From: Aciduliprofundum boonei T469
Lineage (GTDB): Archaea; Thermoplasmatota; Thermoplasmata; Thermoplasmatales; Aciduliprofundaceae
Direction of reading: 5' to 3'
Length of the DNA stretch: 32,000 nt
Assembly: GCF_000025665.1 (NCBI RefSeq)
Contig: NC_013926.1
Coordinates: forward strand, 780,001-812,000
Position numbers and translations under genes: made by a program. The notes below the pieces were generated by a model. It was given only the letters and a program-made list of their open reading frames with translations, made no database searches and was not told the origin of the DNA. Of this stretch, positions 729-32,000 are shown piece by piece. The stretch's first letter is position 1. The number at the start of each line of letters is the position of its first letter.

Positions 729-1646
729 TCATTCAATTTTATCACCTCCGATAAGCTTTAGATATGCCTTTTCCAAGGCTAAACCTTCGCTTCTATAACT
801 TGTAATTTTATAGCCCATTTTTAAAAGCGACTTTAAAATTTCATACTGCTCTTCTGCATTGCCAGAGAAATCGATTTGAATCTTATATGGATTTATCTGA
901 TTTATTGCCTTTATATACTTAATTTCCTGTATTGGCTTAATATCCTTTACTGGCTCTAGAAATTCAACTACTACTGAGTTAGAAAGGAATTTTGAAGATA
1001 CATTTTCAATGGTATCGTAGAGAAGAAGAGTTCCCTTGTTAATCATAGCAACTTCATCGCAAACATCGGTGATTTCCGGAAGAAGATGTGATGACATGAA
1101 TATTAATTTTCCATCTTTTTTCAGGTCTTTAATTATTTCCCTTATTTCTGCCATGCCTTGCGGGTCCATTCCTGTGGTCGGCTCGTCTAAAATCATAATG
1201 GAAGGATTTGTCACCAATGCAACAGCCATAGCCAATCTCTGTGTCATCCCTTTGGAGAATTTTTTGACTTTGGTGTTTCTCCATTCATAAAGCCTCACTT
1301 TTTTTAGCGCCTCTAGGATGTCCTTTCTTGTTGCTCCTCTAATATCACATAGCATTGAAAGGATCTCCATAGGAATTAAATAAGGATAGAAATTTGGGGT
1401 TTCAATAAGTGTTCCCACATCTTTGAGAGCCTTTTTCAACTCTTTTTGAACTGAGTACCCGTTTATGATGGCATCCCCAGATGTAGGTCTTAGCAAATTT
1501 GTGAAAATCTTTAGTGTTGTGGTTTTTCCTGCTCCATTTGGACCAAGATATCCAACACATTTTCCACCTTCAACTCTCAAATTCAAATTCCGAAGAGCGT
1601 AGAAATTTCCGTATTTCTTGCTTAAATTTATGGCTTCAAGATACAT
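729..1646 (-). CDS. ABC transporter ATP-binding protein (ABC-2/exporter type, with ~80-aa C-terminal extension)
   Basis: Walker A GPNGAGKTT, signature FSKGMTQRL, Walker B IMILDEPTTGMD, H-loop SSH. Overlaps the upstream gene by 11 nt. Confidence 0.9.
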   Translation of the reverse strand: MYLEAINLSKKYGNFYALRNLNLRVEGGKCVGYLGPNGAGKTTTLKIFTNLLRPTSGDAIINGYSVQKELKKALKDVGTLIETPNFYPYLIPMEILSMLCDIRGATRKDILEALKKVRLYEWRNTKVKKFSKGMTQRLAMAVALVTNPSIMILDEPTTGMDPQGMAEIREIIKDLKKDGKLIFMSSHLLPEITDVCDEVAMINKGTLLLYDTIENVSSKFLSNSVVVEFLEPVKDIKPIQEIKYIKAINQINPYKIQIDFSGNAEEQYEILKSLLKMGYKITSYRSEGLALEKAYLKLIGGDKIE

Positions 1647-12200: not shown

Positions 12201-12785
12201 ATGAGAAAATTGATAATCGCATTGGTCATGGTATTTCTACTTATCGTATCCTCTGCAACCGTTATTGGAGCACCCAACAAGAAGACTAGTAATAAAAATA
12301 AGTTCCCCACTATAACTGTGATATTTTCTGATGGAAAGGTTGCCGATATAACGGGTAAAATGTGGGCCACTACTATTATTCCCTATGTTGAAGGGAGAAT
12401 AAAGGATTATAAATGGGAGCAAAATCCGGATATTGCACAGTATATATTCTTCGATAAAGCTTTAAAAGGGCTGAATCCCTATGGCCTTGATTTCATAAAG
12501 GCTTTAGAAGAATCAACCTATGAGCAGTTCCAGCATAATATATTTATTCCCCTTTCTAATGCATTGAACAAAACGGCAAATTTGGACTCAGACCATGATG
12601 GCTATACGAATATTGAAGAGCTTAATAATGGAACCTTGCCCGGATTTGCAGATAGCCATCCCGGTATGAATAAGAAAACATTTTGGGGACAGTATGGTGG
12701 ATATATAATAATAGGGGTTTTGATACTCTCTATTTTTGTCCTCTACTTTGTTTTCAATAAGGAAAGTGAGAAGGAGAAACTTTAA
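12201..12785 (+). CDS. Secreted, C-terminally anchored protein (hypothetical)
   Basis: Start at ATG 12201 gives the signal-like MRKLIIALVMVFLLIVSSATVIGAP. Contains an acidic DSDHDGYTNIEE (DxDxDG-type, calcium-binding-like) motif, then LPGF. C-terminal TM YIIIGVLILSIFVLYFVF followed by NKESEKEKL. Confidence 0.6.
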   Translation: MRKLIIALVMVFLLIVSSATVIGAPNKKTSNKNKFPTITVIFSDGKVADITGKMWATTIIPYVEGRIKDYKWEQNPDIAQYIFFDKALKGLNPYGLDFIKALEESTYEQFQHNIFIPLSNALNKTANLDSDHDGYTNIEELNNGTLPGFADSHPGMNKKTFWGQYGGYIIIGVLILSIFVLYFVFNKESEKEKL

Positions 12786-14131
12786 AAATAAACCCATCTC
12801 CTTTCAATTCTTTTGAAGTTGTAAAATGTTAAAAGGAGCATAAAAGATGCTGTTATTGCAACAGTTATTATTGAATAAATTGATATTTCAAAGGTTCCTA
12901 TTACAAGAATCATTCCAGGTATTATGCTGTACATACTGAATTTTAGCACGATCCCTGGATTGAAGAGCAGGCTCGTTATTTTTGGACCTGCTATGTATGC
13001 TGTTATGGATAAAAGGTATATGCTGTTTAAGTAAAATAATCCCAAACTGGCAGGAAGCAACTCTAAAGAATTTATGCTAAATCCTATAATTATTGGAATT
13101 GAAATTATGGATATTATGATTAGATAAGCTCCAATATGGGTTTTAATCACATTTGAGGCCTTTAATGGTAGGCATTCATAGTATCCAAAATCCTCAAGGA
13201 TGGTGAGCCAGCTGTATATGACTGCAGAGAATATAGAGAGCATAACTGCCATACTCATTGGATTGTAAACATTCTTGCCCATGCTCAGATTTATTATTTT
13301 CACAAAAATCAAGAGCAATAGCATGGGAAGAAAATATGTGAATAGGGATTTTACAATAATGCCTCCTCGGATAACATCTTCCATCTCCTTTGCCAGTTTT
13401 ATGTCCTTGAATATTCTTTCGTACTTTTTGAGGGCCATGCCTTTTTTTCTTGAAACATCCTTTAGTTCATTCGGGGTTAAGATATATGCAGATAAGGAGA
13501 ACAAAGTAGTAAAGATAAGAGAGATTAAGAGCCAATACAAGTTCTTATTGATTTGGAACAAAGCCGGGGGAAAAGGGGAGATGGAGAGCATTACGAGAAT
13601 TAGGTAAATCAGCAGGGATGAAAGAAGGAGGTAGTATAATGCTCTTCTTCTGTACCAAAGAGAGAATGAAAGATAACCGAGGGAATACCCGAGAAACATT
13701 GAGATAAAAATTGTTATGGAGAAAATGGAAATTTGATAAATGTTCAATCCTGAAAATGGTAGAGAAATTAACAATCCGATTATTGTTGGGAGGAGGAATA
13801 GGAGAGTGTAATAAATAACATCTCTCAGAAATAAGTAAAAATAGTTCTTCTTCTGTGATATCGGTAGATAAGATGTTATAGTTGTTATGGATGCCCTCTC
13901 TTTACTCCTTCCTAGGAATTCAAAGGAGCTCACTCCGAATCCATATATAAATGTGCTTACCGTGTTTATTATTATAAATTGCTTGTATGGGAAAATTGTA
14001 AAGATCTCACTAAGAAATGATGCACCAACAGCTACAAAGAATATTATGTACAATGGGAAAATTATAAGAGAGTACTTTTTTGCGATGGAAGCGTGTCTTC
14101 TGTACTCTTCAATTAGATAATATTTAATCAT
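12782..14131 (-). CDS. Polytopic membrane protein, putative permease partner of the adjacent ABC ATPase
   Basis: 449 aa, about 10 or more hydrophobic spans. 8-nt overlap with the upstream ATPase gene. No family recognised by eye. Confidence 0.55.
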   Translation of the reverse strand: MIKYYLIEEYRRHASIAKKYSLIIFPLYIIFFVAVGASFLSEIFTIFPYKQFIIINTVSTFIYGFGVSSFEFLGRSKERASITTITSYLPISQKKNYFYLFLRDVIYYTLLFLLPTIIGLLISLPFSGLNIYQISIFSITIFISMFLGYSLGYLSFSLWYRRRALYYLLLSSLLIYLILVMLSISPFPPALFQINKNLYWLLISLIFTTLFSLSAYILTPNELKDVSRKKGMALKKYERIFKDIKLAKEMEDVIRGGIIVKSLFTYFLPMLLLLIFVKIINLSMGKNVYNPMSMAVMLSIFSAVIYSWLTILEDFGYYECLPLKASNVIKTHIGAYLIIISIISIPIIIGFSINSLELLPASLGLFYLNSIYLLSITAYIAGPKITSLLFNPGIVLKFSMYSIIPGMILVIGTFEISIYSIITVAITASFMLLLTFYNFKRIERRWVYF

Positions 14132-14804
14132 TTTCGAATTCCCTCAGAAATATATCCTCCAAGTTTTCAAGCTCATCTACGATTTTAATTATCTTTCCAT
14201 TTTTTATTATTCCTACCCTTGTGCAAATCTTCTTTGCAAGTTCAATTATGTGGGTAGCCATAAATATGGTGTTTCCTTTTTTTGCATAAGAAATTATGTA
14301 ATCCCTAATCTTCTTCTGGTAAATTGGGTCAAGATTTATGAAGGGCTCATCTAAAAAGAGCAGTATTGGCTTATGAATAAATGCTGTAGCAATCATCAAT
14401 CTCTGCTTCGTTCCCTTAGATAAGTCCTTGCATACATTCTTTCTATAATTTTTTAACTCAAAATCTTCTATCATTCTATCCACAGCAGAATTATCCAATT
14501 TTCTTATTTTTGCTACAAAGTAAAGGTATTCCTCCACGGTGAGGTAATTTGGAACACTTTCGTTCTCTGGTACTATCCCAACGAGTTCTCTAACCTTTAT
14601 TGGTTCTTTTAGGGGATCTACCCCTGCTACTCTGATTCTCCCTTTCGCAGGAGTTTGACCTGTTAGTACTTTTATAAGCGTGGTTTTTCCGGCGCCATTT
14701 GGACCCAGTAATCCAAAAACCTCTCCTTTTTTCACCTCTAAATTTAAATCCTTGAGAACATGCTTGTTTTCGTACCACTTGTTTAGAGAATGTACTGAAA
14801 TCAT
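14124..14804 (-). CDS. ABC transporter ATP-binding protein
   Basis: Walker A GPNGAGKTT, signature LSKGTKQRL, Walker B LLFLDEPFINLD, H-loop ATH. Confidence 0.9.
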   Translation of the reverse strand: MISVHSLNKWYENKHVLKDLNLEVKKGEVFGLLGPNGAGKTTLIKVLTGQTPAKGRIRVAGVDPLKEPIKVRELVGIVPENESVPNYLTVEEYLYFVAKIRKLDNSAVDRMIEDFELKNYRKNVCKDLSKGTKQRLMIATAFIHKPILLFLDEPFINLDPIYQKKIRDYIISYAKKGNTIFMATHIIELAKKICTRVGIIKNGKIIKIVDELENLEDIFLREFEND

Positions 14805-17819: not shown

Positions 17820-17943
17820 TGGGGCCGACCGGATTTGAACCGGCGACCTCCCGGTATCTGAAAGCCCCCTTTTACGGGTAAAGCCGCTTTTTTAAAGGGG
17901 CTTCTATCAGCCGGGTGCTCCAACCATGCTAAGCTACGGCCCC
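17820..17943 (-). tRNA. tRNA-Ile (anticodon GAU) with a 49-nt intron at canonical position 37/38
   Basis: Hand-folded minus strand. Acceptor GGGGCCG/CGGCCCC, D-arm GCTT-AGCATGGTTG-GAGC, anticodon stem CCCGG/CCGGG, loop CU-GAU-A|intron|A, variable AGGTC, T-arm GCCGG-TTCAAAT-CCGGT, discriminator A. Mature length 75 nt; CCA not encoded. Confidence 0.85.
17856..17904 (-). other. tRNA intron with canonical hBHBh' splice motif
   Basis: Nt 32-35 CUGA pair with intronic UCAG. The 3-nt bulges are U36-A37-G(i1) and A-U(intron)-A38. The flanking intron helix AAGCCCC/GGGGCUU abuts the central 4-bp helix. Confidence 0.75.
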
Positions 17944-21368: not shown

Positions 21369-21715
21369 TATTTCTCAGAAAAAATTCTTATTACGCTGTT
21401 TTGGATTATTGTAGATGCCAAGGCATCATCTATCTTATCAAAATCCACATCATCCTGAGGAGAAATGGCAATTATTTCATTTCTCTCTCCAAGAACCCAA
21501 TGCACAACTATGTTTCTTTCGTTTTTAATTTCTAAATATCCTTCTGGGTATGTTGGAGACCAATGATGTAAAAAGTCCCCTGAAAAAATACTTTTAAAGT
21601 AATTTTCTAGGCTAGTTGGGCCTAGGGTTGTGGTTATATCTATCCAAACCCATGGGGAGCTATATTCCTCAATAACGCTTCTAAATTTTTTCTCATCTTC
21701 TTTGGAAAACATCAA
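21365..21715 (-). CDS. Hypothetical 116-aa protein (downstream partner of the HicB-like gene)
   Basis: 4-nt overlap with the upstream small gene. No motif recognised. Confidence 0.5.
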   Translation of the reverse strand: MMFSKEDEKKFRSVIEEYSSPWVWIDITTTLGPTSLENYFKSIFSGDFLHHWSPTYPEGYLEIKNERNIVVHWVLGERNEIIAISPQDDVDFDKIDDALASTIIQNSVIRIFSEKY

Positions 21716-21879
21716 AGTACACCTTCAAACTCTTGCTGCAGTTCAATCATAACTTGGTCAAGTACCTCCTCAAATGATATTCCTCTGTACTCTCTTAGAC
21801 CTCCTAGAGGGCTCTGCAATTTTGCTACAAACACGCCATTTTCCTCCAAGAATTCTATGCTGCAAAGACTCTCCTCCAT
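21712..21879 (-). CDS. Small UPF0150/HicB-N-terminal-like protein (55 aa)
   Basis: From ATG 21879: MEESLCSIEFLEENGVFVAKLQSPLGGLREYRGISFEEVLDQVMIELQQEFE. This follows the HicB-N pattern (beta strands, xLPGxxxxGxTxEEAL, helix). The longer track ORF (to 21972) runs into the opp promoter. Confidence 0.4.
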   Translation of the reverse strand: MEESLCSIEFLEENGVFVAKLQSPLGGLREYRGISFEEVLDQVMIELQQEFEGVL

Positions 21880-21990
21880 GTTATCACCGAGCCCGCTATT
21901 GCAATGTTCTATAAAAAATATTCTGCTGGGGATTGAGTAAAGTTTAAATGTATGATTACCATTGTAGGGCAAAGTGGTAGGTGGTTAATC

Positions 21991-23427
21991 ATGGCTGGAT
22001 TAGGTCCTTATTTGGTTAAAAGAGCAATTCAAGCAGCGATTACGATATTTGTTGTTACCAGTATTATATGGGCACTCTTTGAAGCTATGCCGGGTGATCC
22101 AACTGATGCTTTTTATGCAAATCCAAATTATAAGGCAGAAGATATTGCGAATATGGCTGTATCTTTTGGTTTGGCCGATAAGCATGTGGAAACTTTGACT
22201 GCTAAGGCTTTCACTCCGGTACCTGCTTCTCAGATACCCAATTCCAATCAGCAGTATTCCTATTTCTACACGATATTATCTTTTAATCAAAATCCAAGAG
22301 CCGTGTCTATGACTCTGAACGAAAGTTATGAGTATGGTAACAAAACGGTTCAATACGGCATCTATGTGTTTTCATCCCCTGAAAAGGTTCCGTTGGATAA
22401 AATATACTTGAAGAACTCATCAAATGCTGAAGTGCCATCGCAGTACAAGTATCATTGGACTTCTTATGATAAGCTTGGAAGCTCTATTCAGAGCGTTGGC
22501 GTGCTACCAAAGAAGTATGTTTATGTTCTTATTGAAATCCCTCTGAAGGGTGTTCAGATTTCTCCTCAGATGAAAATAGCTCTTCTCTATGTTACGGATA
22601 AACCCCTTTATGAGAGGTATGTATTTTTCTTGAAGGATATGTTTACCTTGAATTTTGGAATCTCTTCTATTTACCATGAACCCGTTTGGACTATTTTGGA
22701 GCAGAGAGTTCCAAGGACACTTCTATGGTTTGGCTTGGCTACTTTGATAACATATGCTATTGGTATACCTCTAGGAACATATATTGCATGGAGAAGAGGT
22801 GGTGCCGCGGAGGGAGCGGTAATAGGATTCAGTCTGTTTTTCTACAATATGCCATCTTTCTGGCTGGCATTAGTGTTCTTGTGGATATTCTCCTATAGTT
22901 TGGGTTGGACCCCTATAAGCGGATTTGCCAGTGAGGGCTATACAGGTCCTGGCTCAACATGCGCTCAGCTTGGTATATGCCCTGGAAATCCATTCTACTC
23001 TATAGTGGATTACGGATGGCATTTGATACTTCCTCTCACTGTTATAGTTCTCTTAGGGGTTGCGGGAGTTATACTGCTGCAGAGAACTTCTATGCTTGAA
23101 ACACTTGGTGAGGATTACATACTCACAGCTAAGGCAAAGGGCTTGCCTGAAAAAGTGGTTCGAAATAAGCATGCTAGAAGAAATGCAATGTTGCCAATAA
23201 TCACATCTTTCGTTCTCTCACTTGCCTACGCTATAGGTGGTGCTGTGATTCTGGAACAGATATTTTCATACTACGGTGTGGGGTACACATACCTACAGGC
23301 GCTGATGGGTCAAGATTTCTTCTTGGCTGGAGCTACGCTTTATATAATATCATTGCTAGTCATATTTGGTAATGTGCTGGCTGATGTGTTGTATGGTATC
23401 CTTGATCCAAGGGTGAGGTTGCAATAA
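21991..23427 (+). CDS. Opp/Dpp-type ABC importer permease (OppB-like) with ~138-aa insertion in the TM1-TM2 loop
   Basis: MAGLGPYLVKRAIQAAITIFVVTSIIWALFEAMPGDP (OppB N-terminus), later the EAA-type region LTAKAKGLPEKVVRNKHARRNAMLP, and the ending ADVLYGILDPRVR. ATG 21991 is preceded by GGTGG. Confidence 0.85.
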   Translation: MAGLGPYLVKRAIQAAITIFVVTSIIWALFEAMPGDPTDAFYANPNYKAEDIANMAVSFGLADKHVETLTAKAFTPVPASQIPNSNQQYSYFYTILSFNQNPRAVSMTLNESYEYGNKTVQYGIYVFSSPEKVPLDKIYLKNSSNAEVPSQYKYHWTSYDKLGSSIQSVGVLPKKYVYVLIEIPLKGVQISPQMKIALLYVTDKPLYERYVFFLKDMFTLNFGISSIYHEPVWTILEQRVPRTLLWFGLATLITYAIGIPLGTYIAWRRGGAAEGAVIGFSLFFYNMPSFWLALVFLWIFSYSLGWTPISGFASEGYTGPGSTCAQLGICPGNPFYSIVDYGWHLILPLTVIVLLGVAGVILLQRTSMLETLGEDYILTAKAKGLPEKVVRNKHARRNAMLPIITSFVLSLAYAIGGAVILEQIFSYYGVGYTYLQALMGQDFFLAGATLYIISLLVIFGNVLADVLYGILDPRVRLQ

Positions 23428-23442
23428 AGGAGGTGTAAAGAA

Positions 23443-25899
23443 ATGGCAGAAGTATCAAAGTGGGACGAAATAAGAAGGCATATGAGTAGAAGCCTAAAAC
23501 AGGGTTGGAAACTTTATAGCCAGAGTAAGTATGGTGTAGTAGGGCTTGCATTGATTCTGATATTTGCGATAATGGCAATTTTTGCTCCATTCCTCACTCC
23601 TTATTCCCCTCAGTTTGAGGCACCTTCAATAGATGCTTTAAGACCTTATGTTTATGCATTTAATACTACTGCACCTGTTGAGGACATTGCCATAGGGTAT
23701 ACTCAGTTAACAACAGCACCATCGGAGGGTGGTAATTGGATAATTCTTAACTACGGCAAGAGTATCCAGGGTATATTCATCCAGGATCCTTCTAGAGTTG
23801 GAATGCCTAATAAAGATCCTTGGGGGACCAACTCTTTGAGATTCACTTTGAATCTAACAGATATTCCTGGAATAGGTGCTGATGAGACAGTTACAAATAT
23901 TGCTTTTCTCTCCCCATCAACATCGGATCTTCAGTATCACTACAGCGGTACAGGTCAAGATCCAAACTGGGATGGAGAGCTGGTGTTCACAACTCAACAT
24001 CATCTGGTTATATACGATATATATAATCTTAAGCCAAAATCCAATTATGATAGGGTGATTGTCAAGAGCTTGCCCTACATACCCACATGGCTCGTGGTTG
24101 ATACAACATCTTCTGGAAATCTTGAGGTGCCAGTTGTTTATGCGCCAGGTTCTGCGGTATTCCCTTCTAGGTTCATAGGTGTTGGAGATGAGTATCATGC
24201 AAATCTTTACTGGTATTATTACACATATTCAAATGATTCTTATCTTCCAAATGCACAGCAATGCTTGTACCCTGTTCTAAATCAGAATTACACGGAGAAA
24301 ATAATAATGAAGCCATTTCTATTCTACAACGATTATCTTTACAACGATAATCTTTCGAAGGATCAAAATGTGTTTATCGTTCCTCTTGAGACAAAGACTG
24401 TGGTCTACAAAGGGTTTGATACACACACCTATCCTCTACCATTCCCCACTCCTGGTGCTCTTCCGTTCGTTCCAAGGCCTAATGTTGTTGAGACAGTTCT
24501 TAATTTCCCGCTAACTGCTGAGCCAGGTTACTATGCGGGAAGTCCAAATTTAGGGAAGAATTACATATTCCTACCTGCTCAGAGCAACGGTAATGCAGTT
24601 GTTTATGTGATGAATCCTGCTGGTTCAAATGGTCATGTGGTAGTTGAGAATGACTGGACAATGAACATGGGAAGAGGTATGGTAACAGCTTCACCATCAG
24701 TCACATATTCTGGAGGAAATTTCACAGTATTTAATGCAAAATATGTGAGCAATGAGGATATGAGTTATGTATATGAGTATATGAAGGGAACAAACACAAA
24801 GTTTGAAATGGTCCCAATAAATAGCACCAAGAATGGCGCCATACCCGTTAATTCTAAGGTTGTTATGCTGGTAAATATGATACTCCAGAATGGAGAGATG
24901 CTTGCCCTTACAAATGGAAACGAGTTAACCCTTTATGTGTTGGATTTTTCTGATTATCAAACAACTGGAAAAATGATTGTTAGTAAGTTTATGTACTATA
25001 ACAATTATACCAAGAAATTGTCCCCATTCCCATATCCTCCGGGAAGCAAGCTATCTTACTTTGAGTACATGGGAACTCTATCTGGCTCAAAATATTCTCC
25101 TACTGCGAGCTCCAATGTGTATACTTTGTATTACTGTAATGATACCAAGACTGTAGGTCTCTTAAATCCAAAGGGTACTAATGTTCTTCCTCTCCCGCCA
25201 GGTAAGTATTTCAGCGGTAACTGGTACATCTTGGGTACAGATGATAAAGGTCATGATATATGGACTTGGTTAGTATATGGCTCAAGAGTGGCGTTTATAG
25301 TGGGTATTCTAGCAGCATTTTTCTCCGTGATGATAGGTACGCTCTACGGTATATATTCAGGATATAAAGGTGGAGTTGTAGATACTTTGCTAATGAGATT
25401 TGTAGATATTATGCTGACACTACCTGGTTTGCCCATATTGTTGATATTGACTGCTATCTTAGGTCCAAGCATATGGAACATAATTCTAGTCATATCTGTG
25501 TTGGGATGGTCCGGAATAGCCAGGGTTATAAGGGCACAGACACTCTCTCTGAGATCTAGGCCATTTGTGGATGCTGCTAGAGTTGCAGGAGCCAGCAATA
25601 CTAGGATAATGGTATCACATATATTCCCCAATGTGTTGCCTTATTCCTTCCTTTACATGACTCTTGGAGTCGCCGGTGCTATTCTTTCAGAAGCTGCTCT
25701 GAGTTTCCTAGGTTTGGGAGATCCAAAGGCGATATCTTGGGGACAGATGTTGTACAGTATACAAACTGCAGGAGCAGTTATGTATGCATGGTGGTGGCTA
25801 TTGCCTCCAGGTCTTTCAATTACACTGATATCGCTTGGATTCTATCTGGTTGGCAGGGCATTCGATGAAATTCTTAATCCGCGCTTGAGGAAGAGGTGA
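23443..25899 (+). CDS. Opp/Dpp-type ABC importer permease (OppC-like) with ~530-aa insertion in the TM1-TM2 loop
   Basis: N-terminal TM VVGLALILIFAIMAIFAPF. The canonical core resumes at ILGTDDKGHDIWTWLVYGSRVAF (nt ~25228), followed by DAARVAGASNTRIMVSHIFPNVLP and DEILNPRLR. AGGAGGTG lies upstream of the ATG. Confidence 0.85.
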   Translation: MAEVSKWDEIRRHMSRSLKQGWKLYSQSKYGVVGLALILIFAIMAIFAPFLTPYSPQFEAPSIDALRPYVYAFNTTAPVEDIAIGYTQLTTAPSEGGNWIILNYGKSIQGIFIQDPSRVGMPNKDPWGTNSLRFTLNLTDIPGIGADETVTNIAFLSPSTSDLQYHYSGTGQDPNWDGELVFTTQHHLVIYDIYNLKPKSNYDRVIVKSLPYIPTWLVVDTTSSGNLEVPVVYAPGSAVFPSRFIGVGDEYHANLYWYYYTYSNDSYLPNAQQCLYPVLNQNYTEKIIMKPFLFYNDYLYNDNLSKDQNVFIVPLETKTVVYKGFDTHTYPLPFPTPGALPFVPRPNVVETVLNFPLTAEPGYYAGSPNLGKNYIFLPAQSNGNAVVYVMNPAGSNGHVVVENDWTMNMGRGMVTASPSVTYSGGNFTVFNAKYVSNEDMSYVYEYMKGTNTKFEMVPINSTKNGAIPVNSKVVMLVNMILQNGEMLALTNGNELTLYVLDFSDYQTTGKMIVSKFMYYNNYTKKLSPFPYPPGSKLSYFEYMGTLSGSKYSPTASSNVYTLYYCNDTKTVGLLNPKGTNVLPLPPGKYFSGNWYILGTDDKGHDIWTWLVYGSRVAFIVGILAAFFSVMIGTLYGIYSGYKGGVVDTLLMRFVDIMLTLPGLPILLILTAILGPSIWNIILVISVLGWSGIARVIRAQTLSLRSRPFVDAARVAGASNTRIMVSHIFPNVLPYSFLYMTLGVAGAILSEAALSFLGLGDPKAISWGQMLYSIQTAGAVMYAWWWLLPPGLSITLISLGFYLVGRAFDEILNPRLRKR

Positions 25900-25904
25900 T
25901 CAAG

Positions 25905-26957
25905 ATGGCAAAAACATTATTGGATGTTAGAAACCTTTCGGTGCATTACAAGATTCAAGGTGGCTGGGTGTATGCGGTAGATGATGTTAGTTTCAAGTTA
26001 GAAAAAGGAGAAACGATGGGTTTAGTGGGTGAATCAGGCTGCGGTAAAACAACCACTGGATATGGCATAACCCAGTTGCTTGCAAGCAATGCATATTACA
26101 AGGAAGGAAGCAAAGTGATATTCGATGGTAAGGATTTTGTTCAAATGAGCACTGTGCCAAGCAAGGAGTATAAGGAGTATAGGAAAATAGTTGAATACCA
26201 TCCAGAGATGCGCAAGTATAGGTGGAAGAGGATATCTATGATATTCCAAGGTGCAATGAATGCGTTTAATCCTGTGTTCAAGGTTGGAGATCAAATAATT
26301 GAAGCCATAAAGGCTCATGAAGATGTTACTGACGAGGAAGCTAGGAAAAGAGTTGAAAGGTTATACAAACTGGTTGGTATACCGGTGGACAGAATAGATA
26401 ACTATCCGCATGAGTACAGTGGTGGTATGAAGCAGAGAGCTATGATTGCAATGGCTCTAGCACTAAATCCAGATTTAATTATAGCAGATGAGCCCACTAC
26501 GGCCCTGGATGTGGTTACTCAGGATAGAATTCTAGGTGAGATGGCAAGATTGCAGAAGAGGGAGAAAGTGGCAATGATTCTTATTACCCACGATGTCAGC
26601 GTTGTGGCTGAAATGGCACACAAGATGGCTGTGATGTATGCGGGACATCTTGTAGAGACAGGTACAACTAGACAGGTATTCAAAGAGACAGCTCATCCTT
26701 ATATGGAGGCTCTCTTAGCAGCTTTCCCAAATATAAAGAAAGAGAAAAAAGAAAGGCTTAAAGCTATACCTGGCTCTCCACCGGATTTGTCTAATCCTCC
26801 TAAGGGTTGTAGATTCGCACCTCGCTGTCCTTACGCTAAGGATATATGCTTAGAAGAAGAGCCACCTGTAATTGAAGTTGCTCCTGGACATTATTCAAAA
26901 TGTCATTTTGCAGAGGAGTTGTATGGTGAACTAGGCGGTGGTGAGAGCAATGAGTGA
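25905..26957 (+). CDS. Opp/Dpp-type ABC importer ATP-binding protein (OppD-like)
   Basis: [41 protein letters not shown]-terminal oligopeptide-transporter domain with GCRFAPRCPYAKDIC...KCHF. ATG 25905 lies 5 nt after AGAGGTGATCA. Confidence 0.9.
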   Translation: MAKTLLDVRNLSVHYKIQGGWVYAVDDVSFKLEKGETMGLVGESGCGKTTTGYGITQLLASNAYYKEGSKVIFDGKDFVQMSTVPSKEYKEYRKIVEYHPEMRKYRWKRISMIFQGAMNAFNPVFKVGDQIIEAIKAHEDVTDEEARKRVERLYKLVGIPVDRIDNYPHEYSGGMKQRAMIAMALALNPDLIIADEPTTALDVVTQDRILGEMARLQKREKVAMILITHDVSVVAEMAHKMAVMYAGHLVETGTTRQVFKETAHPYMEALLAAFPNIKKEKKERLKAIPGSPPDLSNPPKGCRFAPRCPYAKDICLEEEPPVIEVAPGHYSKCHFAEELYGELGGGESNE

Positions 26958-28026
26958 TGAGAATAATAATGATGTGGTCATTCGTGTGAGGAACCTTAAA
27001 AAATACTTTGAATTGCACGCAGGAATGTTCAAGTTCTGGGGTGAGCCCATCTATGTTAAGGCTGTAGATGGTATAAATTTCGATATACATAAGGGCGAGA
27101 TATTGGGTCTTGTTGGTGAATCAGGCTGCGGTAAAACTACAACTGGAAGATTGCTTACGAGGCTCGAAGATCCTACGGAAGGAAATATATTGTTCGAAGG
27201 AGAAGACATTGCAAAATTAAAAGGTAGAGAGTTGAAAAATTACAGAAGAAATGTTCAGATGATATTTCAGGATCCTTATGAATCACTAAATCCAAGATTT
27301 ACTGTGCAAAAGACCGTTATGGAGCCCTTGATCATTCATGGAATCGGTGAGAGCTACGATGAGCGTGTTGAGATGGTTATTAAAGCTCTAGAGGATGCGG
27401 AATTAAGGCCTGCTGAGGAATACTTGGACAGATTCCCTCATGAGCTGAGCGGTGGCCAGAGACAGAGAGTTGCGATTGCCAGGGCTTTGGTGCTGAGACC
27501 TAAGTTCATAGTGGCAGATGAGCCCGTATCGATGCTTGATGTATCCATTCGTGCTGGTGTGATGAACCTGATGCTTGATTTGAGGGATAGATACAATATA
27601 CCTTTCCTCTTCATTACGCACGATATAGCGGTTTCTAGGTACATGTCTGATAAAATGGCAGTGATGTATCTTGGAAAGATAGTGGAGATGGCAGATTCTG
27701 ATGAAGTTGTATTCAATCCTATGCATCCGTATACCAAGGCGTTGATATCCGCAGTGCCGGTGCCAGATCCAGAGCACAAGCATGGAAGGGTGGAGATTAA
27801 AGGAGAGATCCCGAGCCCAATAAATTTGCCTCCAGGATGCAGGTTCTGGCCTCGCTGCCCGTATGCTCAAAAGGGTATTTGCGATGTGAAAGAGCCACCT
27901 CTCGTGGAAGTTGAGCCAGGACATTATGTTGCTTGCCACTTTGCAGAGCAATTAGCTGCTGGAGAACTTGAAAGCGGAGAGGAAGCAAAAGAAGTAATTG
28001 AAGAAGCAGAAAAAATAGAATCTTAA
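26950..28026 (+). CDS. Opp/Dpp-type ABC importer ATP-binding protein (OppF-like)
   Basis: [41 protein letters not shown]-terminal [16 protein letters not shown]...ACHF and an acidic tail. ATG 26950 overlaps the oppD-like stop by 8 nt. Confidence 0.9.
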
Positions 28027-28027
28027 A

Positions 28028-28042
28028 TTTTTCTTTATTTTT
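28028..28042 (+). terminator. Oligo-T tract (TTTTTCTTTATTTTT) just after the operon's last stop codon
   Basis: Read from sequence. Archaeal termination commonly uses T-runs. No strong hairpin seen. Confidence 0.35.
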
Positions 28043-29333
28043 ATGGTTTTGTTCTTCTGATGGTTCTTGGATATGGTATGGCGTATTTTATATGGGAAAG
28101 TCCTGCAAGCCACCAAACGAGGCGATCAACACCTAATCCAAATCCTGAATGAGGTATGCTTCCATATTTGCGCAAATCCACATACCAGTAATAGTCCTCT
28201 GGATTGAGTCCCTCTTCTTCCATTCTTCTCAAAAGCACATCGAGCTTGTATATCCTTTCCCCACCGCCAATTATCTCTCCATAACCCTCTGGAGCGAGGA
28301 GGTCATGACATAGAACAACTTTTGGGTTATCAGGATCGGGCCTGTGGTAAAATGGCTTAATTTCTATTGGATAATGAGTAACAAATATTGGTTTATCAAA
28401 TTTTTTAGTTATGGCAGTTTCTTCATCGGCACCTAAGTCATCTCCATACTCTATATTTATCCCATTCTCCTGTGCAAATTCTATGAGCTCTTCGTATTTC
28501 ATCCTTATAAAAGGTTTTTCTAAATTCTTTAATATTTCTAAATCTCTATTCAAAAACTTCAGCTCCTTCTCTCTTTCTTCTAGAACTTTTTGGACTATGT
28601 GCATTATGAGCTCTTCTTCATCTCTCATCATATCCTCATTGTGATACCAAGCTACCTCTCCCTCAGCATGCCAGTACTCCGTTAAATGCCTTCTTGTTCT
28701 GCTCTTCTCTGCCCTGAAGCTTGGGGCGATTGTGTAAACTCTTTCCAAAGAGAATATGAAAGTCTCAAGATAGAATTGAGCGCTTTGAGATAGATATGCC
28801 TTTTTTCCGAAATATGGCACTTCAAAGAGAGTTGAGCCCCCTTCAACAGCTCCCGTAACAAAGATAGGTCCTTGAACTTCGTAATATCCATTCTCTCTGA
28901 AGAATTCGTGTATGGCTCCAAATACAGTGTGCCTGATTTTAAGAATAGCATTCATCTCCCTGCTTCTCAGCCACAGATGCCTGTTGTCTAGCAAGAACTC
29001 ATCGCTCTTGTCCTTTGTGATGGGAAATAGGTATGAGGGCCCGATGATATTTATATCTTTAACATCCACTTCATACCCTGTGGGAGCCCTTTCCTCTTTC
29101 CTAATCACTCCATTAATTTCTAATGAAGATTCTACGCCTACTTTGTCCAATTCTTTGAATTTCTCGTTTCCTATTTTTTTCTTCTCTATAACGCATTGGA
29201 TTATGTCAGAAGAATCTCTAAGAACCACGAATATTATCTTGCCCATCCTTCTCTTTCTGTATATCCATCCCCGCAGGGCTACTTCTTTCCCTATGAAATT
29301 GTCTGAGAGTACCTCGGATATGTGATGAAACAT
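28041..29333 (-). CDS. asnS: Asparaginyl-tRNA synthetase (class IIb)
   Basis: N-terminal OB-fold pattern (VALRGWIYRKRRMGKIIFVVLRD). Motif 2 FRAEKSRTRRHLTEYWHAEGEVAW (the EKS-TRRHL-E-W form typical of AsnRS rather than AspRS). Motif 3 GFGLGVDRLVWWLAGL...PYPR. Confidence 0.75.
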   Translation of the reverse strand: MFHHISEVLSDNFIGKEVALRGWIYRKRRMGKIIFVVLRDSSDIIQCVIEKKKIGNEKFKELDKVGVESSLEINGVIRKEERAPTGYEVDVKDINIIGPSYLFPITKDKSDEFLLDNRHLWLRSREMNAILKIRHTVFGAIHEFFRENGYYEVQGPIFVTGAVEGGSTLFEVPYFGKKAYLSQSAQFYLETFIFSLERVYTIAPSFRAEKSRTRRHLTEYWHAEGEVAWYHNEDMMRDEEELIMHIVQKVLEEREKELKFLNRDLEILKNLEKPFIRMKYEELIEFAQENGINIEYGDDLGADEETAITKKFDKPIFVTHYPIEIKPFYHRPDPDNPKVVLCHDLLAPEGYGEIIGGGERIYKLDVLLRRMEEEGLNPEDYYWYVDLRKYGSIPHSGFGLGVDRLVWWLAGLSHIKYAIPYPRTIRRTKP

Positions 29334-29415
29334 AAGGTAGCATGGGAGTTATTTATTTATATCTTATCTCTGGGATTGGCAATAATTATATATCGGTGAA
29401 ATAGAATATACTTTC

Positions 29416-32000
29416 GTGGCAAAAATTCGGGGCTTTTATTCGTACCCTATTTACGATTCCCTATCTCCGGTTATTTTAGATGAGCTTATTTACTATGATT
29501 TCATACATAAGTTTTATGAAATATTTGACGAAGAAACATCGGTAAATTTTGTTACATACTCTTTGAATAAAAAAGATTTGAATAAAATTAAAGAAATTGC
29601 TCCTTATGCTAGATTAATACACGGGGAGAAATACACCGAAGAAATAGGCATGTTAATTAAGGACTTATTCAAAAAGAAAAGTATAGGGATTAAAAATATA
29701 AGAACATACTATTGTAGCAAATGTGACGAGTATTTTAAGGAGAGTCAGGTTAAAATTATTCCCAAGAAATTAAGGGAGAATATTGCAAAGATTAGAGTGG
29801 GGAAAAAAATATATTTTCTTGGAGCTTTTTATGGGGAGGAAGAGCCAATAGGAGTATATCTTGGTAAGAACGATAGTTATGTGATTGCCCAGCTTTATGA
29901 TGAAGAATGGATTGCCCCAGCAAGTTTAGAGCTATTTTTGTTGAAGGAGATAGAGATACCCAAGAGTAAGATAAAAAAAGTAGGGTTTGAAGGAATAAAG
30001 GATTTAAATTTTGAATTGTATGTTATCCAAGGAGATGGGAGAGCGGAGCTTATAAAAAAAGGAGATATAAGGGCTAAGAGTTTAAAAAGAAGAATACCTT
30101 CCTATTCGGTTATATTTTCTAAAGAGAAAGAATTGCCCATAAAGACCTGTCCTATCTGTGGTAATGTCTTGCAGGAAGAGAATGTACCAATCTTAGTAGT
30201 TAAAGGAAAAGGTGGCACATATGATCTCTCATCTCCAGAAGGCTCATACAAACTTCCTGTTCTCTATTGTCCAAATTGCGGGCATATAGAATATGGCACA
30301 ATAATCAAAGAATGTCCAGTGTGTGGAAATATAATGGAAAGAAGATTCTCTCTTAAGCCAGAGTTATCCGCTCTGGGCGCTTATATCCATAGTTTTGATG
30401 CACCTCCCTCTCTAATGTTCCTTCACCAGAAGAGATTTATTTTGAAGTATTTTATGGAAAATATTTTGAAGGTTTATGGTAAATATCTTTTTAAAAATAC
30501 GAGATATCTTTCTCATAAAGTACCTGAAAGTATAGATGAAGTTAAGAGAGCTGCACTTTTGATAAAGAAAAGAGGCACTATAAATAAATCCGATATAAAA
30601 AAGATCAGAAAGTTGAGAAATGTAGTTGATAATATTGTTAGATATGTAGAAATTTATGGAACCACTGATGATTACAAAGAAGAGGATGAATGGCTATTGT
30701 GGAAGAATAACGAAGTTAAAAAAAGAATTAGAGAATTAGTAGAGAATGGTAAGATATCTTATGCTTTCCATGTTCTCTATGGGCATATCATTGGAGACAT
30801 TTCGCATTTTTATATACCAATAAAAAGGAAAACTCCATTAGTTCTTGAACCAGTTAGAGATGCCATCTTGATGCTTTATCCGTTTATGCCTGCTTTTGTG
30901 GAAGAGAATTTAGGAAGGATAAATGTTGAGAAATTTTCATTAAGCACTACTGAAGCTGAGGAGATAAGCACTATGGAAATCATAAGGGATTTCGTAAAGG
31001 TTGTCAGAAAGTATAGGGAGAAGAAAGGTATTCCGAGAAAAGAGCCACTAAAAAAAGTCGTTTTTGTAACTTCCTATGCTGATGAAGTAAATTCCCTAAA
31101 GAGTTCTATTTTGAATTTAGAGAATGTGCTTATATTTCAAGTTGTGGAGGATTGGGATGAGATGGAAATAGAGATAGAACCCAATATGGAAGAGATAAGT
31201 GCATCTTATCGTGCCTGGGCGCCTAAAATAGGTTTCTTGCTTCGTAGGAAAAATGTTAGGGAAGTTCTAGATGCCATGGAGAAGGGGGGATACACTCTTG
31301 GAATTGAAGGCTTCATAATTAAAATAACTCCAAAGATGATAAATTATATAAAGAAGGTTCCAGAGGGCTATGACCATATTGAATTTGAGTATGGAGATAT
31401 ATATATTCAAAACGAAAGAGATGCTACTACAAAGAGAATTAGGTTGGTTCGGGAGGTAATAAGGAGAATAAATATTATGAGAAAGGATATTGATATGGAT
31501 TTCGATGATTTAATTGATGTAAGTATTTCTGGAGATAGTGAAGCTATAAAGATGATAAGGGGCTACGATGATGAGATTAGAGAAAAATGTTTGGCTAGAA
31601 ACATTGAATTTAGCTATACGGAATACGGATACATTGTAGAGTGGCCTATAATGGGATACAGAATTACAATAGGTATAAATCCACTGTTTAAGCGTTGGGT
31701 TATAAAGGCGTTTAAGAGTATACCCGGTATAGATGATTACAGAGCAGAGCTTTTGTTTAAAATGGGGTATGGGAGTATATATGAATTGATGGAAGCTGAG
31801 CCAGAGCAGATAGCTGAGGCCACAGGTATGCCTCTGAAGCTTGTAAATGAGCTTATTGATTACCTCTACTCTACGGCTTTCAAACCTAAAAAAGAAAAAA
31901 ATAAGGAGTATTGCCCGTTCTGTGGTACCGAGCTCACACCTGATGATGATTTTTGTCCAAGATGCGGGGCACCTATAAGGGTTAAGATGGAAGAAAGAAA
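29416..32000 (+). CDS. Class Ia (IleRS-type) aminoacyl-tRNA synthetase-like protein lacking HIGH and KMSKS, with added HhH region and C-terminal zinc ribbon; 3' end beyond window (absent from ORF track)
   Basis: Hand translation is open from 29341 to the window end. Candidate starts are GTG 29416 or GTG 29395; there is no in-frame ATG before ~29649. Retained blocks are LFKKKSIGIKNIRTYYCSKCDEYF (CP1 entry), CPICG/CPNCG/CPVCG knuckles, KIRKLRNVVDNIVRY, DEWLLWKNNEVKKRIRELVENGKISYAFHVLYGHIIGDISHFYI and LYPFMPAFVEENL (anticodon-binding domain). Also retained is an IleRS-type C-terminal region (KRIRLVREVIRRINIMRKDIDMDFDDLIDV). Confidence 0.7.
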   Translation, partial: MAKIRGFYSYPIYDSLSPVILDELIYYDFIHKFYEIFDEETSVNFVTYSLNKKDLNKIKEIAPYARLIHGEKYTEEIGMLIKDLFKKKSIGIKNIRTYYCSKCDEYFKESQVKIIPKKLRENIAKIRVGKKIYFLGAFYGEEEPIGVYLGKNDSYVIAQLYDEEWIAPASLELFLLKEIEIPKSKIKKVGFEGIKDLNFELYVIQGDGRAELIKKGDIRAKSLKRRIPSYSVIFSKEKELPIKTCPICGNVLQEENVPILVVKGKGGTYDLSSPEGSYKLPVLYCPNCGHIEYGTIIKECPVCGNIMERRFSLKPELSALGAYIHSFDAPPSLMFLHQKRFILKYFMENILKVYGKYLFKNTRYLSHKVPESIDEVKRAALLIKKRGTINKSDIKKIRKLRNVVDNIVRYVEIYGTTDDYKEEDEWLLWKNNEVKKRIRELVENGKISYAFHVLYGHIIGDISHFYIPIKRKTPLVLEPVRDAILMLYPFMPAFVEENLGRINVEKFSLSTTEAEEISTMEIIRDFVKVVRKYREKKGIPRKEPLKKVVFVTSYADEVNSLKSSILNLENVLIFQVVEDWDEMEIEIEPNMEEISASYRAWAPKIGFLLRRKNVREVLDAMEKGGYTLGIEGFIIKITPKMINYIKKVPEGYDHIEFEYGDIYIQNERDATTKRIRLVREVIRRINIMRKDIDMDFDDLIDVSISGDSEAIKMIRGYDDEIREKCLARNIEFSYTEYGYIVEWPIMGYRITIGINPLFKRWVIKAFKSIPGIDDYRAELLFKMGYGSIYELMEAEPEQIAEATGMPLKLVNELIDYLYSTAFKPKKEKNKEYCPFCGTELTPDDDFCPRCGAPIRVKMEER

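Follow-up and report, generated by a model that had tools for sequence, protein, structure and literature searches.

The locus considered here raises the question of how an importer of a binding-protein-dependent type may work when its operon encodes no binding protein. It lies within a stretch of 32,000 nucleotides from the archaeon Aciduliprofundum boonei T469 (contig NC_013926.1, positions 780,001 to 812,000; G+C ~39%), which was analyzed as a whole and is hereafter called the window, and it consists of four genes, oppB, oppC, oppD and oppF (B-C-D-F), for two permeases and two ATPases of the Opp/Dpp family of ATP-binding cassette (ABC) transporters. Strict dependence on a substrate-binding protein (SBP) is the accepted view of type I ABC importers, and the host archaeon, unlike E. 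coli, has a single membrane and an S-layer. On balance, the evidence described below leads us to lean toward the view that the translocator still depends on an SBP_bac_5-type partner encoded elsewhere in the genome and that the large extracellular domains (ectodomains) of its two permeases are accessory.

The B-C-D-F operon and the missing binding-protein gene

The components of the transporter were located as follows (coordinates are those of the window; aa, amino acids; TM1 and TM2, first and second transmembrane helices), with the basis of each assignment given in brackets.

21991..23427, + strand: oppB/dppB-type permease, 478 aa (Pfam, PDB sequence match, homologue starts)
22090..22173, + strand: scoop motif of OppB, residues 34-61, PGDPTDAFYANPNYKAEDIANMAVSFGL (alignments)
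22174..22602, + strand: extracellular insertion of OppB, residues 62-204, ~143 aa (alignment, AlphaFold2)
23443..25899, + strand: oppC/dppC-type permease, 818 aa, ATG at 23443 (Pfam, PDB sequence match)
23629..25242, + strand: extracellular domain of OppC, approximately residues 63-600, in the TM1-TM2 loop (AlphaFold2, Foldseek)
25905..26957, + strand: oppD-type ATPase, 350 aa, ATG at 25905, alternative GTG at 25896 (Pfam)
26950..28026, + strand: oppF-type ATPase, 358 aa, ATG at 26950, alternative GTG at 26938 (Pfam)

From their sequences, the four products are assigned to the membrane translocator of an Opp/Dpp (PepT, TC 3.A.1.5; peptide/nickel/oligosaccharide) type I ABC importer. OppB matched the Pfam families BPD_transp_1 (PF00528, 1.2e-36) and BPD_transp_1_N (PF19300), and its best PDB sequence match was E. 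coli DppB (5.9e-44). OppC matched OppC_N (PF12911, residues 19-62) and BPD_transp_1 (PF00528, 1.1e-28, residues 632-817) as well as E. coli DppC in the PDB (3.4e-49, residues 584-816), while OppD and OppF each matched ABC_tran (PF00005) and oligo_HPY (PF08352). The C-terminal region of OppD contains Cys-x5-Cys-x6-Cys-x17-Cys (approximately 26750-26860), with spacing identical to that of the [4Fe-4S] ligands of E. coli DppD, and the C-terminal region of OppF contains a four-cysteine motif with spacings of x5, x7 and x17 (approximately 27830-27930). Ligand cysteines of this kind have been described for both E. coli DppD and E. coli DppF (PMC12136057), and OppD and OppF of the window probably each bind an iron-sulfur cluster.

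The window operon resembles those for E. coli DppABCDF and M. tuberculosis OppABCD (PDB 8z1v-8z1z and 8j5q) in its permease pair, in its oligo_HPY ATPases with four cysteines and in the equal length of the B-subunit scoop motif. It differs from both in having no SBP gene, in the predicted 143-aa beta-sandwich that follows the scoop motif of OppB and in the ~540-aa ectodomain held by the TM1-TM2 loop of OppC, a loop that is short in the bacterial protein. Among the features by which membership in the Opp/Dpp family is judged, the permease pair, the ATPase pair and the scoop motif were all found, whereas an operon-encoded SBP_bac_5 protein was not. The substrate could be either peptides or oligosaccharides; sugars are also imported by archaeal Opp-family systems, and a peptide substrate would fit the physiology of A. 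boonei.

The tight linkage of the four genes claimed in the first-pass annotation of this DNA was borne out by direct reading of the sequence. The oppB and oppC genes are separated by 15 nt that contain AGGAGGTG, the oppC stop codon is separated from the oppD ATG by 5 nt, and oppD and oppF overlap by 8 nt (ATGAGTGA). An in-frame ATG at 21952 would lengthen OppB to 491 aa and overlaps a mechanical 86-aa open reading frame (ORF) of the minus strand. Homologues of 465-478 aa begin at the methionine encoded at 21991, which is preceded by a Shine-Dalgarno-like GGTGG at 21980-21984, and the alignment of these homologues indicates that 21991 is the true start. The longer, 491-aa form is used in some database entries.

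Pfam searches of every sizeable ORF in the window gave no match to any SBP family, and a profile constructed from 16 SBP domains that are encoded in sister operons (described below) found no match among six-frame ORFs of at least 30 aa at E<=10 with the HMMER filters off. These results confirmed the earlier claim that neither flank of the operon carries an SBP gene and also excluded an SBP remnant or a small SBP elsewhere in the window.

The same B-C-D-F-asnS arrangement (asnS being the gene convergent with oppF) and the same lack of an SBP gene were noted in the related loci L001 (76% OppC identity), L003 and L004 (56-57%) and L010 (57%), and no adjacent SBP gene was present in the clade relatives L001, L010 and L018. 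Upstream contexts differed between these loci, L001 having the small upstream genes of the window as well and L010 having PGK as the neighbour. OppC of exactly the window type was limited to 14-15 clusters at 90% identity, and a genome scan with OppC detected metagenome-assembled genomes (MAGs) of Aciduliprofundum sp. (76% and 70% identity) along with MAGs of DHVE2/Thermoplasmata (56-57%). Conservation was noted in at least 14 clusters, among which OppC identity was 54-96%, and in 5 GTDB species representatives, and the identity of OppD and OppF within the DHVE2 clade was 86-94%. The SBP-less layout is common to the whole DHVE2/Aciduliprofundum clade. Loss of an SBP gene from one genome only was excluded, since the layout holds to 54-57% OppC identity and in varied upstream contexts, and the operon is under selection, because its four subunits are canonical, intact and strongly conserved.

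Extracellular domains of the two permeases

Both permeases are enlarged, OppB having 478 aa as opposed to the normal ~330 and OppC 818 aa as opposed to ~300 for bacterial DppC. The OppC ectodomain of ~540 aa is located between the OppC_N helix and a GTDxxGHD motif that precedes TM2, and no Pfam family matched it. The AlphaFold2 model of this domain, which was based on 15 sequences, contained ~35 beta-strands with block pLDDT values mostly of 70-95. Foldseek matched the model to WD40-type, DPP4/FAP and semaphorin propellers with a probability of 1.0, E-values of 1e-4 to 1e-5 and target-normalized TM-scores of ~0.45-0.5. The ectodomain is thus modelled as all-beta and propeller-like, the shallow alignment permitting no finer call.

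An exhaustive HMMER search with the OppC ectodomain alone against 1.84 billion representatives identified 39 proteins (clusters at 50% identity). The matches that were not fragments were OppC-type permeases of ~550-1140 aa, and no free-standing ectodomain occurred among the 39. Three motifs, STSDLQ.HY, YYTYSND and FPYP.GSKL, were invariant in the ectodomain of DHVE2 OppC and specific to that clade, and no motifs common only to the ectodomains of DHVE2 and of L022, another locus with no SBP gene, were seen.

In OppB, the scoop motif (PGDP...GL) has the canonical length of 28 residues that is also seen in E. coli DppB and in relatives of normal size, and 18 of the 33 positions from 29 to 61 were invariant among 20 clade members, which by this alignment places the motif among the most conserved extracellular segments. 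The scoop motif of E. coli DppB, which is the segment from TM1 to helix alpha3, binds the cleft of DppA (PMC12136057). The insertion in OppB of the window is situated between the end of the scoop motif ("...SFGL") and helix alpha3 (DKPLYERY) and is missing from Thermoplasmata relatives of 331-335 aa. AlphaFold2, from a 20-sequence alignment, modelled the insertion as all-beta with block pLDDT values mostly of 84-90, and a beta-sandwich or jelly-roll is predicted. A significant PDB fold match to the insertion was not found with Foldseek, which gave weak jelly-roll or carbohydrate-binding-like similarities (best E ~0.05 outside the transmembrane domain). Among the loci sampled, a profile of the insertion detected homologues only in OppB of the DHVE2 and L022/L015 types. 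Derivation of the insertion from the ectodomain of accessory protein x of sister operons (described below) was rejected on the basis of an hhalign probability of ~1%.

Asn, Tyr, Ser and Thr are abundant in both inserts, and charged residues are scarce. Nine N-glycosylation sequons are present in the OppC ectodomain and three in the OppB insertion, which amounts to 12 in 681 aa, as opposed to none in the remainder of both permeases and 0-0.5 per 100 aa in cytosolic proteins of the window. The composition and sequon content of the inserts fit an extracellular location.

A fused or hidden SBP within these ectodomains was considered and rejected, as there was no match to an SBP family in Pfam, both models were all-beta and Foldseek matched neither of them to an SBP. 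Substrate-binding domains that are fused to a permease, so that a separate SBP gene is unneeded, are known from OpuA, GlnPQ and Bdellovibrio MalE-MalF (PMC8025302, PMC11065425, PMC6906923). Although the window transporter resembles these systems in that its extracellular domains are a covalent part of the permease, it does not belong with fused-SBP transporters such as OpuA and GlnPQ, because neither insert has an SBP fold. The fused domain in the known systems is a genuine SBP fold at a terminus, whereas the domains encoded in the window are all-beta and lie inside TM1-TM2 loops. Among characterized systems, the closest parallel is the P2 loop of MalF in E. coli MalFGK2-E, where a beta-sandwich, as predicted for OppB, is carried in an extracytoplasmic permease loop. 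MalF P2 is an Ig-like beta-sandwich of ~185 aa, as compared with 143 aa for the OppB insertion, that reaches ~3 nm outward and binds MalE (PMC6906923). In contrast with the OppB insertion, which is in the TM1-TM2 loop, P2 is between TM3 and TM4; the insertion shows no sequence or significant fold match to P2, and nothing comparable to the 540-aa domain of OppC is known for MalFG.

Related operons and competing explanations

Gene context was compared in 80 metagenome loci and in several loci reached via OppB homologues. Among the loci with a big OppC and at least 2.5 kb of sequence upstream of oppB, 31 of 41 carried an SBP gene directly upstream and, beyond these, truncated ORFs with immunoglobulin-like (Ig) domains that resembled SBP C-termini were noted upstream in L048 and L062. 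The SBPs of these sister operons (i.e., those of L008, L013, L028, L034, L040, L041 and others) had 900-1850 aa, with an N-terminal SBP_bac_5 domain, Ig-like repeats (Big_1, Big_7, CARDB, MG4), a C-terminal transmembrane anchor and an acidic tail. This domain order describes a putative stalked and tethered binding protein, far above the usual size of ~550 aa. Many of the big-OppC operons also carried two conserved small genes after oppF, namely x, which was noted in 33 loci, and y, which was noted in 46 (positions of x/y, L096:6681-7683, L013:9605-10801, L011:13380-14560 and L008:14667-15756). Gene x encodes ~190-230 aa with an N-terminal transmembrane helix and a beta-rich, sequon-rich ectodomain, while gene y encodes ~145-170 aa, apparently as a multi-pass membrane protein. 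Neither x nor y had a significant Pfam match, y of L013 giving a sub-threshold match to AtpR. Homologues of the SBP, x and y were absent from the window and from every DHVE2-type locus. The window operon is like the uncharacterized A-B-C-D-F-x-y operons of Thermoplasmatota (L013, L040, L028, L096 and others) in its B-C-D-F order and tight coupling, and unlike them in that they carry a giant SBP and usually x and y, whereas the window clade has none of these but does have an enlarged OppB.

Two further observations concern the region upstream of oppB. The contigs of L006, L007 and L029, which represent two or more independent sources, each stop 160-280 bp before the start of oppB; a repetitive gene at that position, e.g., one for an Ig-repeat SBP, may have interrupted their assembly. 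In L033, a protein of 1706 aa with C-terminal Big_1 and Big_2 domains is encoded directly upstream of oppB (L033:3617-8734), and neither Pfam nor the sister-operon SBP profile detected an SBP_bac_5 domain in it.

Comparisons performed with hhalign indicated that the OppC ectodomain of the window is homologous along almost its whole length to those of the L013, L011, L006 and L022 groups. The match to the L013 group (probability 99.2%, E 3.6e-19, 437 columns) was full-length by BLASTP, and E-values for L022, L011 and L006 were 1.1e-19, 8.5e-17 and 1.4e-16, respectively, while the L096, L008, L037 and "big" groups aligned only over the last 13-63 columns of the ectodomain. An SBP_bac_5 ORF was present just upstream of oppB in 9 of the 10 loci of the L013 group, in some cases cut by the contig end, and the tenth locus had too little upstream sequence. 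No SBP gene was present upstream in L011 or in L022, and the L006 contig ends before the SBP position. The coexistence of a homologous ectodomain and an operon-encoded SBP in the L013 group implies that the ectodomain alone is probably no replacement for an SBP.

The first-pass annotation had also raised the possibility that close relatives carry the same B-C-D-F unit behind an SBP gene that was lost only from this genome. The second part of this proposal fails, SBP absence being clade-wide, while the first part holds to some extent for L096, a DHVE2-related locus which has synteny with asnS and an SBP-type gene upstream but differs in its B and C subunits. The asnS product, OppD and OppF of L096 are 79%, 82% and 85% identical to those of the window, the values for the two ATPases being near the 86-94% seen inside the clade, and the convergent position of asnS is kept. 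OppB, in contrast, is of normal size (332 aa), with 47-49% identity in two comparisons by BLAST; the ectodomain of OppC belongs to a different type, and the operon includes both x and y. Upstream of L096 oppB, the ORF encodes the C-terminal end of a giant protein of SBP type with Ig repeats and a transmembrane anchor. The B subunit, C-subunit ectodomain and x of L096 resemble those of other Thermoplasmatota lineages (L032, L036 and L092), and this mosaic suggests that the extracytoplasmic parts were swapped as a cassette while the ATPases were vertically inherited.

An SBP gene was also missing from several other loci with ample upstream sequence. In L022 and L015, a HypF gene (together with an MFS gene in L022) is upstream and OppB has 586-590 aa, while OppB is of normal size in L038 and in L011, which has x and y. 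These last two loci indicate that the insertion in OppB is not required for the SBP-less layout. In this sample, the beta-sandwich of OppB was seen only in operons that also had no local SBP, x or y gene. A rough neighbor-joining tree of the OppC transmembrane domain placed L021-L023, L038 and DHVE2 together; DHVE2 and L022 are probably sister lineages, and the co-occurrence of the insertion and SBP absence may represent a single evolutionary event.

Continued dependence of the window translocator on an SBP is favored because its ectodomains are not SBP folds, because a homologous ectodomain coexists with SBPs and because the scoop motif is conserved. It is also supported by the intact subunits under selection, by the SBP genes upstream of oppB in 31 of the 41 big-OppC loci and by the SBP-type gene of L096. 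Of the two options offered in the first-pass annotation, whose interpretation is supported in part, an SBP encoded elsewhere gained weight from the non-SBP folds, the coexistence seen in the L013 group and the scoop motif, at the expense of replacement of the SBP by the ectodomains. The underlying premise that Opp/Dpp translocators need an SBP is sound; E. coli DppBCDF shows no activity when DppA is missing (PMC12136057), and a precedent for separate encoding exists in MppA, which serves OppBCDF of E. coli (PMC3173086). In the E. coli case, as proposed for the window, the translocator operon and at least one SBP are encoded apart, although the E. coli opp operon retains oppA while the window operon has no linked SBP gene at all. 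The partner of the window translocator, whose existence we infer along with the role of the ectodomains and the substrate, would be the product of an orphan gene or would be shared with another opp/dpp operon. The propeller-like domain of OppC and the beta-sandwich of OppB would then be accessory domains carried on the outside of the permeases, where they would probably recruit, position or retain the SBP or the substrate beneath the S-layer, much as MalF P2 holds MalE.

Several observations weigh against an SBP encoded elsewhere. The SBP gene, x and y are all absent at this locus from both the DHVE2 clade and the L022-like sister, and these same operons alone carry the beta-sandwich of OppB, a pattern that looks like coordinated remodelling of the extracytoplasmic apparatus and that a switch to SBP-independent capture would likewise produce. 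Moreover, domains of 540 and 143 aa on the outer face might sterically limit the docking of an SBP. A search of a protein collection with the SBP profile, which could not be targeted to Aciduliprofundum, found no SBP attributable to this genus and is therefore uninformative rather than negative. One candidate, P0292, which was noted in a composition screen of the profile matches, was rejected because it sits in a bacterial A-B-C-D-F operon.

An SBP-independent importer, in which the propeller-like domain of OppC and the beta-sandwich of OppB act as a built-in receptor, filter or gate in DHVE2 (and the L022-like sister) and would capture peptides or oligosaccharides and pass them to the translocation pore, is conceivable but unlikely. 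Absence of the SBP gene throughout the clade in several upstream contexts, with x and y missing as well, is consistent with such an importer, as are the restriction of OppB-insertion homologues to operons with no SBP gene (DHVE2 and L022/L015), the clade-specific invariant motifs of the DHVE2 ectodomain and the common role of beta-propellers in binding or gating peptides, the Foldseek matches including the DPP4 and FAP propellers and WD40 peptide binders. However, the homologous propeller coexists with operon SBPs in the L013 group, L038 and L011 have OppB of normal size yet no adjacent SBP gene, and the co-occurrence noted in DHVE2 and L022, as probable sisters, may be one event. The scoop motif, a known binder of the SBP cleft, has also been kept and conserved, and we know of no description of a natural Opp/Dpp importer that is independent of an SBP. 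We consider it improbable that the ectodomains recruit an extracellular partner other than an SBP_bac_5 protein, such as a surface or S-layer protein or a protease encoded elsewhere. Propellers are typical platforms for protein-protein interaction, and the Ig-domain surface protein encoded upstream of oppB in L033 illustrates what such a partner might be, but the proposal is speculation for which the clade provides no positive evidence, and the window offers no candidate, the small neighbouring ORFs having neither a signal peptide nor a Pfam family and not being conserved in L010.

Still less credence is given to a function other than nutrient import, i.e., sensing or signalling, export, or a link between membrane and S-layer driven by the ABC ATPases. 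While heavy remodelling of the extracytoplasmic parts next to conserved OppD and OppF, and large ectodomains with many N-glycosylation sequons, would be compatible with such a function, the highly conserved transmembrane domains and coupling regions are those of a canonical importer, OppB and OppC have kept the scoop motif and the GTDxxGHD motif that precedes TM2, respectively, and the operon has no linked signalling genes. Decay, in which an operon that lost its SBP is becoming a pseudogene cluster, is the least credible explanation; the missing SBP gene is the only point in its favor, and it is effectively refuted by four intact and tightly coupled ORFs and by their conservation, which covers at least 14 clusters of sequences as well as 5 GTDB species representatives and leaves the ATPases 86-94% identical.

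If SBP-independent, the window transporter would be the first natural Opp/Dpp member of this kind and its receptor fold would be unrelated to those of SBPs. If the favored explanation is correct and the SBP is simply encoded elsewhere, the operon is a modest variant, albeit with an ectodomain family that is still uncharacterized and is widespread in peptide uptake systems of Thermoplasmatota. The occurrence of the same ATPases either with an anchored giant SBP, OppB of normal size and x/y, or with an enlarged OppB and no local SBP, provides a natural comparison by which it becomes testable whether permease ectodomains recruit or replace a binding protein and how single-membrane archaea hold substrate capture near the transporter. 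Literature searches returned nothing on these ectodomains, on Opp permeases with big ectodomains, on permeases that carry a propeller-like ectodomain of 540 aa or on peptide transporters of Aciduliprofundum/DHVE2. The transporter family is ordinary, whereas the ectodomains and the cassette-like extracellular variation are undescribed in the literature searched and are amenable to experiment.

Flanking genes and other features of the window

The features that border the operon are as follows.

21712..21879, - strand: divergent ORF, 55 aa, with ATG at 21879 (the mechanical ORF reaches TTG at 21972)
21880..21990, + strand: A/T-rich divergent intergenic region, 111 bp (read from sequence)
28027..28040, no strand: T-rich spacer ATTTTTCTTTATTT, 14 nt, between the converging stops of oppF and asnS
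28041..29333, - strand: asnS, asparaginyl-tRNA synthetase type, 430 aa, convergent (Pfam tRNA-synt_2 and tRNA_anti-codon)

Both flanks agreed with their earlier description, according to which a divergent 55-aa gene lies behind a spacer of ~110 bp and a T-tract is followed by convergent asnS. The 55-aa ORF, which had no Pfam match and is considered here only as context outside the transporter, has a small homologue at the matching position in L001 and none in L010. The intergenic region is a putative promoter region in which TATA-like boxes were noted at 21909-21919 (CTATAAAAAAT) and 21944-21950 (TTTAAAT). In a scan for sigma-70 promoters and intrinsic terminators, sites were no commoner than expected by chance, a result that is not meaningful for an archaeon given the bacterial models used. 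The spacer at 28027..28040 is likely an archaeal terminator region of the oligo-T type. The asnS gene occupies the matching position in L001-L005, L010, L020 and L096 and was used as the synteny anchor.

Beyond asnS, an ORF at 29386-32000 (+) runs off the end of the window and encodes a protein of ~1000 aa with Anticodon_1, DUF5915, HHH_5 and zinc-ribbon matches; no tRNA-synthetase catalytic domain was matched in the visible part. An ORF of ~1000 aa is likewise present downstream of asnS in L001, L003 and L010, and the copy in L010 has matching Pfam families. Two other ABC ATPase genes, at 729-1646 (-) and within 12782-14804 (-), appear to belong to systems separate from the opp operon, and the latter (14124-14804) adjoins an ORF of 449 aa with no Pfam family. 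A tRNA of 124 nt at 17820-17943 (-) was detected with Rfam (54.5 bits) and missed by ARAGORN, and its length suggests an intron-containing archaeal tRNA.

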